Of a DNA stretch of 64,000 bases, positions 14,874 to 20,567 are shown piece after piece. Position 1 is the stretch's first letter, and every line of letters starts with the position of its first letter. This stretch comes from Promethearchaeota archaeon (GTDB taxonomy: Archaea > Asgardarchaeota > Hermodarchaeia > Hermodarchaeales > Hermodarchaeaceae), in the NCBI GenBank assembly GCA_048939625.1, contig JBHLPH010000005.1:46972-110971 (forward strand), in the 5' to 3' direction. The position numbers were made by a program, and so were the translations under genes. The notes beneath the pieces are model-generated. The model was not told the DNA's origin. It worked only from the letters and a program-made list of their open reading frames with translations, and did not search any database.

Positions 14874-14952
14874 ATTTCAATCACCATAGCTTTTGTAAGA
14901 ACAGTTTCTTCCTGTACAACTGCTCTCCTTTTAATATTCAGTGTGTTGAACC

Positions 14953-14980
14953 AAAAAAAGTGGTGCAAAAAAAGCACCAC
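14953..14980 (-). terminator. Hairpin plus U7 terminator
   Basis: Minus strand GTGGTGC-T7-GCACCAC-T7. Confidence 0.75.
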
Positions 14981-15230
14981 ACGATAGCGGGATGGGGCGT
15001 CCTAGAACGAGGACATAAAGGAGGAGAGGGGGAGAGGGGAATGAAAGACACAGGGAAGGAGACCCCATCCTATCGCCGTAGTAGTGTCGTTTTACCTCGT
15101 TCGGTGTGTTGTGTGTGGAGAACTGTGTTCCATGACGAGGTGGAGTTAGGGTTGGAAAGAGTGCTTTCTTCAAGTGAAAGCGCTTGTGTTGTGCTCTATT
15201 CCACCTCGGGGAACTCCCGTTATCCAACTG
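14953..15230 (-). ncRNA. Candidate structured small RNA (element E1, about 280 nt)
   Basis: Lies between a BRE/TATA (15248-15264) and a terminator; stems 15136-15144/15200-15208 and 14982-15003/15057-15075; about 50-nt pyrimidine loop; overlapping ORFs lack protein-like character. Confidence 0.6.
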
Positions 15231-15247
15231 GATATAGGTTATACTGA

Positions 15248-15264
15248 ATTTAAAACGTTTCCTT
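15248..15264 (-). promoter_or_regulatory. Archaeal BRE/TATA promoter for E1
   Basis: Minus strand AAGGAAACG-TTTTAAAT, downstream of a T6 run that follows the phosphatase stop. Confidence 0.6.
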
Positions 15265-15330
15265 TTACTGTTGGAGTTTTTTCCGTAAATCAGAGTAGAT
15301 TCGGAAAAAATGACTGAACAGCATGTTACC

Positions 15331-17100
15331 TCAGGAAGTGTTCCGAGCTCTTCTGCGGAAGACGAGAGCAAGTGAAATAGTTAAGGTAAAGCCAATGATG
15401 ATGGAGAGAAGAGGAAATCCAGGGATACCAGGTGGGGGAGGGGTCCAAGTCGAATCTTGAAATGTGACACGGAAGGTGATAGAAGCGGCATTACCATAGG
15501 GATCAAATGCTGTGACGTTCAGTCCAAACGTTACTCCAGTAGCGCCTGTTGTACTTTCGAGAAGGCCTAAGTTAGATATTTCAAAATTAGATGTATCATT
15601 GACCAGCCAGTCGGTAATTCCAGAACGGTCGGTGGCATTAAGCCGGAGAACGAGTCCGAGGCCATATTCGACGATTTGATCTTCGGGGATGTTTAACCAA
15701 GTTGGAGCGATTGTATCGCGTATTTGGAATTGAAAGGTGCTTGAGAGGATGAGCCCACTGGAGTCGTTAACGTGAACTTCGACTCCGTAGTCTCCAACCG
15801 CTAGTGAGGTTGTGTTTTGAATCAGTCCTGTGCTATCGATGGCGAAGTTGGTAGTATCATTGATCCACCACGTATCAACGGGATTAATGGAAAAGGTGCT
15901 GAGTTGGTAAGAGCACAAATCTCCAAATTCGATTTGTTGATCTGTAGGAAGGTCAGTCCATTCGAAAGGAAGATGGCCTGGAACTAGGTCAAAGGCTTCG
16001 AAGAGGTATTCACCAATGTCCGTTAGATGAGAGAAGGTGGGAAGAACAGTTGTGGTGTTGTGATAGACAAATACGGGTACTGGGGCGTCAGTATGATAGG
16101 TATCAGTGAATTGGTATTGCAACACGGGATTAGTCATGTTGACCCAGAGACCACCGCATTCATGATCAGCGGTGACAATCAGGAGGGTACGGTTATTTTG
16201 CTGGGTGTACTCATAGGCAACTTGAACAGCTTCGTCGAAGGCAATGGTTTCGCCGATAGTGTGATTGATGTGCCAATCATGACAGGCGTGGTCAATCCGA
16301 CCACCTTCGACCATGAGGAAGAATCCGGTTGAGCTCCGATCAAGGAATTGCAATGAAATGTTGGTCATTTCTTTCAGATGGGGTTCGATGAGAGGGTTGC
16401 GATCGTATTCGTAATTCATATAGTAATCAGTAAATAACCCGAGTAGGTAATCGGCACTTGCACTCGCAATCATGTCGTTTCGATTTTGCACAATCGTGTA
16501 CCCAAGGCTAGTCGCTGTTGCTAGTTGAGAAGAGTAGTATTCGAGTCCCCCACCAAGGAGTACCTCAATGTCCTTGGTAATTTGTTGTTGAGCGATTGTA
16601 TATTGATCATTGCGATTTGGGACATGTGACGAAAAGGGAGCTGGTGTTCCATGCGTAAGAGTAGTGGTTGTCACTAAACCTGTGGCTTTATCTAACGCTT
16701 CAGCGGCTTCTAGAATCGTGGTCAACTTTTCACCAGTCGGTAACATAGCAACCATATTGTTGTTCGTCCGATTCCCGGTTGCGAGAGCTGTTGCAGCGGC
16801 AGCAGAGTCAGTCACTGAACTATCCAAAGAATACGTTTCGATATCGCCAAGGTACGACAATTCTTCCATAGTTAAATTTCCGGATGTTCCCAACCATTTC
16901 TTGGTAGCATTAATTTGTCCCCAGCCCATGCCATCTCCAATCATCAAAATGACGTTCTCAAAAGGCGCATCAGGAGATGCAGGTGCAAGAAGAACATTTT
17001 GGCTAACCTGGGCCATTGGAGTGATCACAGTTATTGGAAAAGGAGATATCAGAAGCAGACTAAGCAGTATTGATAGAGAAACAATTGAAATTAATTTCAG
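15331..17100 (-). CDS. Cell-surface alkaline phosphatase with Ig-like repeats and PGF-type C-terminal anchor
   Basis: IGDGMG, VTDSAAAATA (catalytic Ser), VEGGRIDHACH, TADHECGG; two x(W)xxxPxDQ..E.G repeats; PPPPPGIPGFP-TM-RRRAR; signal peptide implies start at CTG 17100. Confidence 0.9.
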   Translation of the reverse strand: MKLISIVSLSILLSLLLISPFPITVITPMAQVSQNVLLAPASPDAPFENVILMIGDGMGWGQINATKKWLGTSGNLTMEELSYLGDIETYSLDSSVTDSAAAATALATGNRTNNNMVAMLPTGEKLTTILEAAEALDKATGLVTTTTLTHGTPAPFSSHVPNRNDQYTIAQQQITKDIEVLLGGGLEYYSSQLATATSLGYTIVQNRNDMIASASADYLLGLFTDYYMNYEYDRNPLIEPHLKEMTNISLQFLDRSSTGFFLMVEGGRIDHACHDWHINHTIGETIAFDEAVQVAYEYTQQNNRTLLIVTADHECGGLWVNMTNPVLQYQFTDTYHTDAPVPVFVYHNTTTVLPTFSHLTDIGEYLFEAFDLVPGHLPFEWTDLPTDQQIEFGDLCSYQLSTFSINPVDTWWINDTTNFAIDSTGLIQNTTSLAVGDYGVEVHVNDSSGLILSSTFQFQIRDTIAPTWLNIPEDQIVEYGLGLVLRLNATDRSGITDWLVNDTSNFEISNLGLLESTTGATGVTFGLNVTAFDPYGNAASITFRVTFQDSTWTPPPPGIPGFPLLSIIIGFTLTISLALVFRRRARNTS

Positions 17101-17247
17101 GATGATCCAACCTCTTAGCCGTAACCGAGTATATGCTCATTTTAAATTGTTCGATTAACACAGCAATTTTGTTGTTTAATGGTTTATTGAAAGACAAGGT
17201 TTTTTATACAACTTTCAATTGAGAGCAAAGTGGAGGGTTTCTTAGTA

Positions 17248-17979
17248 ATGACCTTTATTGAAGCTCCTTTACATTTCGGTCTGCTCTTGACAACGACAAT
17301 CATTTTATTGCTAATGACACTCATTGGGTTTCTGTGGGTTGTAAAAACTGAGAATGCGCGTGCGGGTCTTTGGTCGGGATTCCTAACGATTTTTTTCGCG
17401 TTCTTTACGTTTCTGATTCTCACAATCATGGTGTTTCAGGTGCCTGCTGTTGCGACAGTGAGTGAACTCTTGCCATATTCACTGGGCGCATGGACATGTG
17501 TGTCGCTCCATGCTTTCTTCCTATTGTACTATGTTCTAGGATTCAGGTGGCTGCAAAAACGAGTCTGGCTTGCCATCCTGCCTGTTATAGGTACCATGGG
17601 ATTTGTGACAATCCTGTGGATTTACGCCACACCAGCGAATATGATCCTTGTTTTTGATGGTGTCATGAATTGGCTGGCGATGCCATCGATTATTGTTGGC
17701 GTTGGTGGCGTCCTGGCAATCTTCTATATGTTTTTGGCACCGACCTTTGCGGTTTATCAGGTCACGAAATCGCAAGAAGGCATGGTGAAGATGGGAAACT
17801 GGATTAGCTGGATTGGCCTATTTCTTTGGTTCATCGCTGCACTTCTCATGGCTCTGGTCCTTTATGTTGCACCATACATGCTCTTTGTCATAGCCCTTGC
17901 GACTGTCGCTTACATTCTTGTGTTCATCGGTTGGCTCATGGCCACACGAGGAATCAGCTCACCGGCATCGACTGGATGA
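17248..17979 (+). CDS. Stand-alone 7TM membrane protein
   Basis: Seven hydrophobic segments; RBS GGAGG; TTTTTATA promoter upstream. Confidence 0.8.
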   Translation: MTFIEAPLHFGLLLTTTIILLLMTLIGFLWVVKTENARAGLWSGFLTIFFAFFTFLILTIMVFQVPAVATVSELLPYSLGAWTCVSLHAFFLLYYVLGFRWLQKRVWLAILPVIGTMGFVTILWIYATPANMILVFDGVMNWLAMPSIIVGVGGVLAIFYMFLAPTFAVYQVTKSQEGMVKMGNWISWIGLFLWFIAALLMALVLYVAPYMLFVIALATVAYILVFIGWLMATRGISSPASTG

Positions 17980-17981
17980 AT

Positions 17982-18029
17982 AATGCCTGAGATTCCCTTA
18001 AATGGAAATCAGGCATTTCCCTCTTTTTT
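17982..18029 (+). terminator. Hairpin plus T-run terminator
   Basis: AATGCCTGA...TCAGGCATT followed by CCCTCTTTTTT. Confidence 0.65.
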
Positions 18030-18089
18030 CTGAAACGCGAGCGTTTTTATAGCCAATGCCAAAGATGGAAGGCTGGAGGGTTTTTCTGA

Positions 18090-18815
18090 ATGCTCTATAT
18101 CACTGAAGCACCAATTAAATTCGGGATAGCGACAGCAGTTTGTATAATTGCAATAATTGGAGTAATATTGTCTATCTGGTTGGTGAGAAAGTCGCAGGGT
18201 TTCTATCGGACCATGCGGGCCTTTTTTGTGCTATCTCTGATTTGCTTGTCCCTTGGCTTCCTGTTTATCGCTTTGTCCTTTTACAATCTCCCAGCCGCGG
18301 CTACTGTTGAACAGATGTTACCGTATAATCAGCTTATCTATGCGTTCATTGGATTACATGCTTTTTTCCTGTGGTTGTATTTCTGGTGGCAATGGTTCAG
18401 TGAAAAGAAATTGCGTTTAATATTCCCCGTCATCTTAACAGGCGTTTTTCTTGTACTCCTTATGATCTTGCCGACGCCTCTCACGACAGGCATTGTGTCG
18501 GATGGCGTGAACAACTACTTGGTCATGCCCCTTCTACTATCCGCGTATGGGGCACTTCTCATCCTGTGGTATCTGCTACTGGTGCCTTTTATTGCGTTGT
18601 ATCGGTTAGCAAATGAACGGGAAGGGATGAACAAAACCTGGACATGGATCAGCCTCTTTTCCTTGATTCTTTGGTTTATAGCAGTGATGATGATGGCAAT
18701 GGTCGCCTTCATTCCCACAGGTATGCTCTATGGCCTTGGACTAAGCATTGTCGCATGGCTTCTGTTCTTCATCTCAGGCAGCCAGATTCATCTCCCGATG
18801 ACCCTTGAGCCTTAA
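18090..18815 (+). CDS. Stand-alone 7TM membrane protein (tandem paralog)
   Basis: Shares EAP..FG, PA.ATV...LPY, LHAFFL, DGV.N.L.MP, EGM.K...WIS and LWFIA with 17248-17979. Confidence 0.8.
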   Translation: MLYITEAPIKFGIATAVCIIAIIGVILSIWLVRKSQGFYRTMRAFFVLSLICLSLGFLFIALSFYNLPAAATVEQMLPYNQLIYAFIGLHAFFLWLYFWWQWFSEKKLRLIFPVILTGVFLVLLMILPTPLTTGIVSDGVNNYLVMPLLLSAYGALLILWYLLLVPFIALYRLANEREGMNKTWTWISLFSLILWFIAVMMMAMVAFIPTGMLYGLGLSIVAWLLFFISGSQIHLPMTLEP

Positions 18816-18820
18816 TCACT

Positions 18821-18861
18821 CCCGTAGCATTCCTGATGATGCTACGGGCCTCACCCTTTTT
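18821..18861 (+). terminator. Hairpin plus T-run terminator
   Basis: CCCGTAGCAT/ATGCTACGGG 10-bp stem, then CCCTTTTT. Confidence 0.7.
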
Positions 18862-18889
18862 CAAACAATACGTATTCATAAGATGAGAA

Positions 18890-19275
18890 GGCTAAAACTA
18901 AAAACAGAATAACACATTCGCCGAATGGACTTTATAGTCAAGCTGTTGGGTGGAGGTGCCCGAGAAAGACCGGGCACGTCCCTGTGTGGTCATTCCCCTA
19001 TATCCCCGAAGGGGAGCAACGTAGACATAGGACGGTCATCGGTGCCAGATGCCTCAGGAAAAAACATCTGAGGTTCGGACAACGGGAGGTGGGATTTGGG
19101 AGGTACAGGATTCGGGAGGGTTCCCTGGGTGGGATAGATTTTTCGAGGCGCCAGGACAACCAATGCGCATCCTTGGTGCTTCCCGCAGTCTTCGTTACTA
19201 AATAGTACTTTCTGAGTTGTGCGTTTGCGTAGTTCCCACAATCGAAACTACGCATTTGCGCAGTATTTCAATCAG
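18890..19275. ncRNA. Candidate structured RNA (element E2); strand uncertain, minus slightly favoured
   Basis: At least five consecutive hairpins, three GGGAGG repeats at 19084, 19098 and 19114, GC-rich relative to flanks, no convincing long ORF. Confidence 0.55.
19226..19254. repeat. 9-bp perfect inverted repeat (operator or RNA hairpin)
   Basis: TGCGTAGTT-N11-AACTACGCA upstream of the Lrp fusion gene. Confidence 0.7.
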
Positions 19276-19448
19276 AAATGATGTGAAACTGAATAAAAAC
19301 TTGGAGATTTCACGCGATTGCGGGCTTCCGAGTCCTCTTAAAAGGTTTACACTTTATTAGATAGATGCACTGACGAAGTTGTGGTTTTCGAGAGAAGGAC
19401 AAAGCATATCAGCTTCCGAACCACGTGGGTAATTGATATCCAGAACCA

Positions 19449-20567
19449 GTGGGTGGGTCTGTGACGTTTAAACCATCGGTATTAGAAGACCGGGGAGCAT
19501 GGCTGCTAATCAAACGGTTACTAGACGGGAGTATCGAAGAGTTACAGCCTATCTTGGATTCAACGACGCCATACGGATTCCGATACCCCGAAGCTGAAAA
19601 AGCACTGGAGGTCGAAGCAAAAGAGACTGTCGATCGCTTAGAGGGATTACGGCGTGCAGGGATTCTGAAGGGAGAACTTGCGGAATCAATCTTCACCTGT
19701 GGGAACTGCGAATCACCAGATCTTCATCCACAATATCAGTGCATGACCTGTGAAGGAAGCCGCTTAATTCAGCATCCTGTAATTGAACACTTTTCTTGTG
19801 GATTCATTGGTCCGCCGAGTGAATTTGAAACGAAGAAGGGTATGCGCTGCCCTTCCTGTGGAAAATCGTTGGAAGGAGAACAACAGGATTACAAATCCGA
19901 GTTGGCCTTTCGTTGCATGGATTGCAGCACGGTGAGTGCAAAACCAAGGTTGGTCTTTCGTTGTTTTCAATGTCAGAAGGTGAGTGAACTCCTTTCTACA
20001 TCTGAACGAGTTGTATATCTTTATCGTTTAAATATGGAGCATCGAGGTGAAATCATTCATTACCTTGGCTTCCATCCAGCCCCAGAGGCCGAGAAGCCAT
20101 CACGCCGAAAACATCGCGTAGATTTGGATGGGCTAGATCGGAGAATTTTAAATATTTTGCAGCGCAATGCGCGTAAATCATTTCGTAACATCGCCAAGCA
20201 GTTGAAAGTTAGTGATGCGACGATTCGTAGCCGAGTAGCCCGGTTAGAGCAAAACAACATCATTAAGGGATTTACAACGTTAGTTGATCCGGAACAAGCG
20301 GGAATGGAAGTACTGGCTCTGATTCAACTCGAAGTTGAATCACAGGCATTAACCAAATTGAACACAGACTTGCGAGGAGTGGAAGGGGTGAAGCTTGTAA
20401 TGGAAACGGGAGATCGCCCAAACGTAATTCTTATTGTGGCGTTCCAGACGAGGGACGCATTGAATCTATTCTTAGATCAATACATTCGAGGGAAATTAGG
20501 AATTCAGTTGCTCTCGGTGACCTTAGCCTTAGGGCTACGTAAACTTGATTGGATGATTCAGTTATGA
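19449..20567 (+). CDS. Multi-zinc-ribbon (TackOD1-like) domain fused to an Lrp/AsnC regulator
   Basis: CGNC, CMTC, IEHFSCG, CPSC, CMDC, CFQC; C-terminal LDGLDRRILNILQRNARKSFRNIAKQLKVSDATIRSRV HTH plus RAM-like domain. Confidence 0.85.
   Translation: MGGSVTFKPSVLEDRGAWLLIKRLLDGSIEELQPILDSTTPYGFRYPEAEKALEVEAKETVDRLEGLRRAGILKGELAESIFTCGNCESPDLHPQYQCMTCEGSRLIQHPVIEHFSCGFIGPPSEFETKKGMRCPSCGKSLEGEQQDYKSELAFRCMDCSTVSAKPRLVFRCFQCQKVSELLSTSERVVYLYRLNMEHRGEIIHYLGFHPAPEAEKPSRRKHRVDLDGLDRRILNILQRNARKSFRNIAKQLKVSDATIRSRVARLEQNNIIKGFTTLVDPEQAGMEVLALIQLEVESQALTKLNTDLRGVEGVKLVMETGDRPNVILIVAFQTRDALNLFLDQYIRGKLGIQLLSVTLALGLRKLDWMIQL

Follow-up and report, generated by a model that had tools for sequence, protein, structure and literature searches.

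The combination of a small RNA (sRNA) with a partner RNA is known from bacteria, where sponge or decoy RNAs accompany sRNAs in pairs such as GcvB with SroC, ChiX with the chbBC trap, and RyhB/RybB with 3'ETS-leuZ. Trans-acting sRNAs that mask ribosome-binding sites are known from the archaea Methanosarcina and Haloferax, and eukaryotes have Y RNAs, small RNAs in which the paired 5' and 3' ends make a bulged stem that closes a large pyrimidine-rich loop and in which a U tract follows at the 3' end. Asgard archaea are the closest prokaryotic relatives of eukaryotes, and to our knowledge almost nothing is known about their regulatory RNAs; no paper on non-coding RNAs of Hermodarchaeota was found in the literature. 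Here we describe two intergenic elements, E1 and E2, located 4 kb apart in a 64,000-nucleotide stretch (the window) of a contig from a Promethearchaeota archaeon of the class Hermodarchaeia (genome G000, 88% complete, 2.3 Mb, 44.6% GC; contig C58). On the comparative evidence given below, E1 and E2 are undescribed non-coding RNA genes, and their families and Asgard setting are new.

The arrangement resembles the bacterial sRNA/sponge pairs in several respects, here read from sequence alone: a small RNA that would act in trans, a conserved single-stranded seed, an extended complementary site, and a conserved match with specificity for one sRNA. Unlike in those pairs, both elements are archaeal, the predicted duplex is much longer (24-28 bp with bulges), and E2 appears to be a 370-nt stand-alone structured RNA encoded beside E1, with no Hfq-type chaperone implied. 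E1 is like the Y RNAs in shape only. Its C/U-rich loop, which holds CCUCC and CAU, the complements of the Shine-Dalgarno sequence and of the start codon, recalls the archaeal sRNAs that mask ribosome-binding sites; in contrast to these, the full E1 loop pairs unspecifically with GA-rich sequence and no mRNA target was identified.

Complementarity of E1 and E2

On the minus strand, E1 reads TCCCTGTGT-CTT-TCATTCCCCT-C-TCCCC (15056-15028) and E2 reads GGGGA-TAT-AGGGGAATGA-CC-ACACAGGGA (19007-18979), and the two segments can form 9+10+5 bp. The first-pass annotation had reported these sequences and this pairing in proposing a candidate sRNA and its target, and both were found where it had placed them. 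The core segments of the duplex are UCAUUCCCCU/AGGGGAAUGA and CCCUGUGU/ACACAGGG, within 15035-15056 and 18979-18999. A local alignment of the E1 plus strand with the E2 minus strand, a similarity equivalent to the complementarity of same-strand transcripts, scored 27, compared with 17.9 ± 2.2 for dinucleotide shuffles, of which 2 in 1000 reached 27. The isolated duplex between a 30-nt E1 segment and minus-strand E2 had an energy of -42.4 kcal/mol (z -6.9), with none of 100 shuffles as stable. Local segments were used in these calculations instead of whole elements, for which RNAduplex returned a meaningless -122 kcal/mol and global alignment was uninformative. When the whole 2.3-Mb genome was searched on both strands (20,881 seeded windows), the E2 site was the best non-self match to the E1 segment. 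By itself, the match in this genome is notable but not overwhelming; it becomes convincing because it is conserved in relatives.

Pairing at the same position was found in 12 of 14 genomes from two genera, with energies of -38 to -50 kcal/mol and z from -4.9 to -8.8. The two exceptions were G006, where pairing was weak (z -3.1), and G005, where it was lost; individual pairs were lost in G001, G006 and G005, and G004 pairs in a shifted register. The E1 segment was unchanged in 16 sequences, and the changes in E2 were mostly neutral for pairing, being A to G opposite U or changes in bulges. For example, most genomes have AGGGGGAUGA in E2 where the window has AGGGGAAUGA, and the G still pairs with the U of E1. 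The spacer in E2 is CC, UC or CU in this genus and CCAAG in the sister genus, in which the helix is almost continuous (28 of 30 positions). In 10 of the 14 genomes, minus/minus pairing was more stable than plus/plus pairing, since the A/G difference in E2 gives a G.U pair with the U of E1 on minus/minus and an A.C mismatch on plus/plus. Cofolding of the full-length elements favoured the heterodimer by -16.5 kcal/mol in this genome and by -9.3 kcal/mol in the sister genus. E2 paired with the E1 loop at -46.2 kcal/mol, compared with -27.7 to -33.5 kcal/mol for the loops of three paralogs of E1 (see below). Judged by these comparisons, the complementarity of E1 and E2 is above chance, specific to E1, conserved and selected.

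E1 is a minus-strand small RNA gene

Conservation, covariation and strand-specific wobble pairs identify E1 (14952-15226, minus strand) as a real stand-alone small RNA gene of ~275 nt. Its sequence is 72-89% identical across ~360 nt in 11 genomes of the same genus, and in the sister genus its core shows 88-90% identity. All reading frames across E1 are broken by indels, and such frame-breaking indels in both E1 and E2 exclude coding. In the named structure of E1, 92% of the cells were paired and 10 pairs had changed on both sides; none of 500 shuffles was as good, and slid controls had only 44-52% of cells paired. From the 5' end, the predicted RNA comprises a hairpin CGGGAGUUCCCCG (15207-15219), a conserved segment S1 (15189-15207) reading GAGGUGGAAUAGAGCACA, a variable hairpin domain (15103-15188) and the segment GAACGAGGUAAAAC (15089-15102), followed by the P1 stem, the loop and the terminator, all on the minus strand.

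A putative minus-strand promoter lies at 15246-15266, in which a GGAAACG motif resembling the B-recognition element (BRE; 15256-15262) is followed by the TATA box TTTTAAAT (15248-15255). Every same-genus copy keeps the motif, as does a metagenome copy (M045), and the sister genus has it as GGAAACC-TTTTAAAA. The ~25 nt between the TATA box and TGGATAACGGGAG vary, as would be the case for sequence that precedes a transcription start; the conserved 5' end UGGAUAACGGGAG begins ~25 nt downstream of the TATA box, where transcription of E1 would start.

The P1 stem is formed by the 5' arm GGCG-AUA-GGAUGGGGU (15062-15077) and the 3' arm CGCCCCAUCCCGC (14986-14998). Pairing in this stem was complete (100%) in 16 sequences, and four of its pairs had changed on both sides, GGGG/CCCC being AGAG/CUCU in the sister genus. 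Compensation is visible there as a change of GGAUGGGG/CCCCAUCC to GGAUAGAG/CUCUAUCC, and in a metagenome copy as a change of GCG/CGC to ACG/CGU. The terminator, found by a terminator scan on the minus strand at 14952-14979, is a GUGGUGC-U7-GCACCAC hairpin followed by U7, with five pairs changed on both sides. All eight non-Watson-Crick cells in P1 are G.U on the minus and A.C on the plus strand, and the terminator hairpin has nine G.U against one A.C in the minus orientation; this wobble asymmetry places E1 on the minus strand. P1 encloses a pyrimidine-rich loop of ~55 nt, UCCUUCCCUGUGUCUUUCAUUCCCCUCUCCCCCUCUCCUCCUUUAUGUCCUCGUUC (15005-15060), which was identical in 16 of 16 sequences from the two genera and metagenomes. 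The 3' end of the loop, CCUCGUUC, is predicted to form a pseudoknot with the upstream GAACGAGG, and one of its pairs shows a double change from C-G to U-A in G007. The loop segment that is specific to E1 and complementary to E2, hereafter motif A, occupies 15028-15056.

P1 was also assessed as a bulge-helix-bulge motif, which has two 3-nt bulges on opposite strands with a 4-bp helix between them. The stem of E1 has only one bulge of 3 nt (AUA/ACA), which is on the 5' strand, and the 8-bp helix beyond it is unbroken and 100% paired; this identity was rejected. Upstream of the promoter lies a palindromic T6...A6 hairpin (15281-15312, strand unassigned), which is kept whether or not the neighbouring phosphatase gene is present and is probably a two-way terminator insulating E1.

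E1 belongs to a multi-copy sRNA family

A covariance model built from E1 gave weak full-length matches elsewhere, which turned out to be paralogs, and BLAST with one of these matches recovered two to five family copies in each of the 19 genomes of the class. By this evidence, E1 is a divergent, 5'-extended member of a class-wide, multi-copy family of Hermodarchaeia pyrimidine-loop sRNAs, a membership that the first-pass annotation did not mention; no Rfam family describes an E1-type RNA. The paralogs in the same genome lie at C31:17593-17765(-), C31:47105-47186(-) and C75:5041-5087(+). Each is a predicted RNA of ~130 nt that has a TTTAAATA box of its own, an outer stem that covaries, the bulged stem GGCG-AAA-GAU..GGCAC / GUGCC..AUC-CGCC and an almost invariant loop, CCCCUAGAAAACCAUUCCCUCUCCCCUCCAAUUGUGUCCUUU.

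E1 shares with the family a TATA box ~25 nt upstream, a U-rich 3' tail, a covarying GGCG...CGCC closing stem with a 3-nt bulge on the 5' strand and a second helix, and the loop motifs CAUUCCC(C)UCUCCCC and (U/A)UGUCCU. It differs from the paralogs in a 130-nt 5' extension found in this genus, in its second helix (GGAUGGGG/CCCCAUCC instead of GGCAC/GUGCC), and in the 5' part of the loop, which reads CCCUGUGUCUUUCAU where the paralogs have CCCCUAGAAAACCAU. The part of the loop that separates E1 from its paralogs is the part complementary to E2, and E1 is the only member of the family with an E2 partner.

A search for divergent homologues of E1, for which the class comprised 19 genomes, included pattern scans of all genome and metagenome contigs and returned only Hermodarchaeia-type copies with the same loop. 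A metagenome contig from a more GC-rich lineage (L045, Ga0153916_10315681) carries E1 with an identical loop and no 5' extension; no adjacent E2 was found within its 700 nt of sequence. In one sister-genus genome, part of the 3' region of the E1 loop recurs in diverged form (CUUCCACACUCCUCCUUUUUGUCCUCGUUCU) outside the E1/E2 locus (L024:1246-1308, G018:C88).

E2 is a structured single-copy element

E2 (18945-19315, probably minus strand) is, on the strength of its conservation and covariation, a genuine conserved and structured non-coding element of ~370 nt. It is 71-83% identical across ~490 nt within the genus, with a core 86-91% identical in the sister genus, and no second copy was found in the genome. 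RNAalifold on 13 sequences predicted 43 pairs, of which 13 had changed on both sides. The predicted structure contains conserved local hairpins and a long-range stem, the 5' strand of which (19145-19195) pairs with a 3' strand at 19029-19058 (both on the minus strand) and which has several pairs changed on both sides. Inside this stem lie an invariant segment, CCGUUGUCCGAACCUC (19070-19085, minus strand), and three tandem repeats of 14-16 nt (19084-19135) that read CCUCCC on the minus and GGGAGGnGGGATTT on the plus strand; in G004, G005 and G017 there are four copies of the repeat. On the minus strand, one copy reads CACCUCC, which resembles the 16S rRNA 3' end.

The segment complementary to motif A, referred to here as the docking segment (GGGGAUAUAGGGGAAUGACCACACAGGGA, 18979-19007, minus strand), forms the 3' arm of a hairpin, E2a, and few parts of E2 are as well conserved as its AGGGG(G/A)AUGA. 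The 5' arm of E2a, CGUCCUAUGUCUACGUU (19018-19034, minus strand), resembles the second E1 loop motif, in agreement with the first-pass annotation, which had noted this likeness between CCTATGTCTACGTT and TTTATGTCCTCGTT. The annotation had also read the docking segment as opening a 31-codon micropeptide gene. The open reading frame (ORF) is present here; in relatives the frames diverge after MTTQGRAR, eight codons that overlie the RNA motif, and in the sister genus they encode 5-21 unrelated amino acids; the micropeptide is not supported. A 3'-terminal hairpin, GUGCCCG/CGGGCAC (18956-18977, minus strand), is conserved with a variable loop and is followed in several relatives by a T4-T6 run on the minus strand.

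The right-hand 100 nt of E2 contain GCGCA-type palindromes, GCGTAGTT...AACTACGC (19227-19253), TTTGCGCAG (19255-19263) and CACGCGATTGCGGG (19311-19324), which adjoin the E2 TATA box and are kept as palindromes in both genera (the sister genus has, for example, GCGCAGCTGCGC). They have the appearance of operators, situated at or close to the E2 transcription start, to which a protein may bind.

The strand of E2

E2 is more probably read from the minus strand, an assignment that we hold with reasonable though incomplete confidence. A probable minus-strand promoter lies at 19335-19350, where GUAAACC is followed by TTTTAAGA (TATA box 19337-19345). Both genera conserve this element, whose AAA(C/G)C-TTTTAA layout is that of the E1 promoter, and in the sister genus the ~500 nt on the other side of the TATA box contain no start of a plus-strand gene. 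The shared layout and the lack of a plus-strand gene that the box might serve in the sister genus favour the minus strand for E2, as does the minus-strand order there of E2, T-run, E1 promoter and E1; in this genus the box could also serve the TackOD1-AsnC gene. The wobble pairs point the same way in the E2 3' hairpin, which in the plus orientation has three A.C cells (G.U on the minus strand) and no G.U, and in E2a (its closing stem, and the helices Ha and Hb), where cells that are G.U on the minus strand would be A.C on the plus.

Transcription from the plus strand would change the meaning of the complementarity. E1(-) and E2(+) would then both carry UCCCUGUGU..UCAUYCCCCU..UCCCC and bind a common protein or purine-rich target without pairing with each other, the 3' part of E2 being an inverted partial duplication of an E1-type gene. 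We consider this explanation unlikely. The plus strand of E2 reads GGCAC-GUCC-[CUGUGUGGUCAUUCCCCUAUAUCCCC...]-GGAC-G...GUGCC, which resembles the family pattern GGCAC-UUCC-[loop]-GGA-GGUGCC; the E2 helices GCGTAGTT/AACTACGC and GCCTC/GAGGT have more G.U than A.C in the plus orientation; and G004 and G005 have a plus-strand hairpin followed by T6 inside E2. However, the plus-strand side of E2 has no conserved promoter, and in the sister genus a plus transcript begun at the shared TATA box would be ~25 nt long when it reached a T6 run. Outside the 28-nt motif, moreover, E2 does not follow the family architecture, no covariation was found between GGCAC and its GGUGCC partner, and the Ha and Hb helices favour the minus strand as described above.

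E2 as a candidate partner RNA of E1

We judge the chances to be about even that E2 is a dedicated partner RNA of E1, acting as a decoy or target through pairing in trans. Under this reading, two separate RNA genes, both most likely on the minus strand, would be transcribed from similar BRE/TATA promoters. The covarying closing stem of E1 would present the invariant C/U-rich loop of ~55 nt, from which 15028-15056 would pair over 24-28 bp with the 3' arm of the E2a hairpin (18979-19007). Binding of E1 in the cell would open this hairpin, and E2 would serve either as a decoy that titrates E1 or as a target RNA that E1 remodels. The sRNA/target pair of the first-pass annotation is partly supported, with both elements conserved and structured, E1 assigned to the minus strand as an sRNA, and complementarity above chance; the strand of E2 is assigned by promoter logic.

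Several observations weigh against pairing in trans. The genome-wide margin of the E2 site was only 1.7 kcal/mol (-42.4 against -40.7 and -40.4 kcal/mol), the runner-up sites for the 24- and 30-nt E1 segments lying in coding regions. Energy by itself is not specific, since the full C/U-rich loop will pair with whatever sequence is GA-rich; a genome-wide search with the full 63-nt loop was swamped by GA-rich poly-Glu coding repeats, for instance on contig C53. Because the E1 loop is invariant, no intermolecular covariation is possible. The loop is also unchanged in G011, in which E2 and the adjacent regulator are missing from a contiguous syntenic locus, and in G005, where the E2 site is lost, implying that something else constrains the loop. 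As for the strand, the GU/AC counts of E2 follow the strand used for structure prediction, so wobble does not settle it, and minus-strand transcription of E2 could end before it reaches the docking site, at a run of T5-T8 that lies within a hairpin loop (19059-19064). Finally, each of the two segments has a potential partner within its own RNA: S1 for motif A in E1 (about -24 kcal/mol, z -1 to -2.5), and CAGACUCC for GGGGGAUG in E2.

These cis partners raise the possibility that the complementarity is a by-product of modular design, in which a pyrimidine strand and a purine strand in each RNA pair only in cis and the two RNAs never meet. The purine arm of E2 does resemble S1 of E1, RNAalifold pairs S1 with motif A and the docking segment with the upstream CAGACUCC, and the retention of E1 in G011 fits such independence. 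Even so, this explanation seems rather improbable to us. The S1:motif A pairing is weak, for which it was rejected as the main explanation, and in the sister genus it is outdone by another pairing; S1 also has a local partner that is better supported and shows wobble variation. By comparison, the trans duplex has almost twice the stability and persists when the full-length RNAs are cofolded, and in two genera the 24-28 bp to the invariant E1 segment are retained despite sequence drift in E2. A stronger form of association, with E1 and E2 as obligate partners in one two-RNA particle docked by the 24-28-bp intermolecular helix, is conceivable but very unlikely. Its logic would be comparable to that of paired small nuclear RNAs (U4/U6) or of competing-endogenous-RNA control, and a particle of this kind, with the tandem anti-Shine-Dalgarno-like CCUCCC repeats of E2, would be the first archaeal case.

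Organization of the locus

E1 lies in an intergenic stretch (14930-15330) to the right of genes for two helix-turn-helix proteins of ~470 amino acids each. Between E1 and E2 are an alkaline phosphatase gene (15331-17028, minus strand) and genes for two paralogous seven-transmembrane (7TM) proteins that belong to no Pfam family (17230-17979 and 18090-18815, plus strand). E2 occupies the next intergenic stretch (18820-19440) and is followed by a TackOD1-AsnC/Lrp regulator gene (19449-20567, plus strand, annotated start GTG) and a HEAT-repeat protein gene. A conserved stretch of ~70 nt (19376-19448, ..GTTGTGGTTTTCGAGAGAAGGACAAAGCATATCAGC..) was observed upstream of the GTG start; it is out of frame with the regulator gene and is for this reason possibly a structured leader.

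In every same-genus locus, one or two relatives of the 7TM genes (17230-18815) separate E1 from E2, and the phosphatase gene occurs in only 5 of the 11 loci. The sister-genus locus lacks the 7TM genes, and no gene separates the two elements there: the end of E2 lies ~100 nt ahead of the E1 promoter, and the minus-strand order is small ORF, E2, T-run, E1 promoter and E1. The regulator adjoins E2 in this genus only. The idea put forward in the first-pass annotation of an RNA circuit that brackets the phosphatase and 7TM genes does not fit these arrangements.

The content of the E1-E2 interval varies from ~0.2 kb to 5.7 kb among genomes, as would be seen if the inverted 28-bp repeats acted at the DNA level, either as recombination or protein-binding sites at an insertion hotspot for the 7TM and phosphatase genes or as the ends of a mobile element. 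There is, however, no transposase, no recombinase and no other copy in the genome, the flanks are syntenic among the compared genomes, and the sister genus keeps the repeats without the cargo. The repeats are, in addition, embedded in longer conserved structured elements with RNA-type covariation, and a DNA-level origin is hardly to be expected. Transposon terminal inverted repeats in particular were rejected, given the lack of transposase cargo and of multiple copies and the syntenic flanks.

Other known identities were rejected as well. A search of the 64-kb window against Rfam 15 at the gathering threshold gave no match, E1 and E2 themselves had only chance-level Rfam matches (E 0.9-7, far below the gathering score), a tRNA scan returned nothing, and a Pfam search of the ORFs over E1 or E2 found no match. 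With the archaeal models for signal recognition particle (SRP) RNA and RNase P RNA (RF01857 and RF00373), the RNase P RNA of this genome was located on contig C62, and in 12 of 14 other same-genus genomes the SRP RNA was on contigs other than those of E1/E2. RF01857 had no match in the 88%-complete genome itself, probably owing to an assembly gap. An identity as Y RNA or part of a Ro60 ribonucleoprotein was likewise dismissed, with no match to Rfam Y_RNA or YrlA and no Ro60/TROVE protein in the genome.

Implications

The locus offers two unannotated, strongly constrained RNA genes together with a concrete pairing that can be mutated. The invariant C/U-rich loop of the sRNA family points to a conserved partner, which may be a protein or ribosome-binding sites. 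If the pairing of E1 with E2 proves true, it would provide an archaeal example of one non-coding RNA controlling another.

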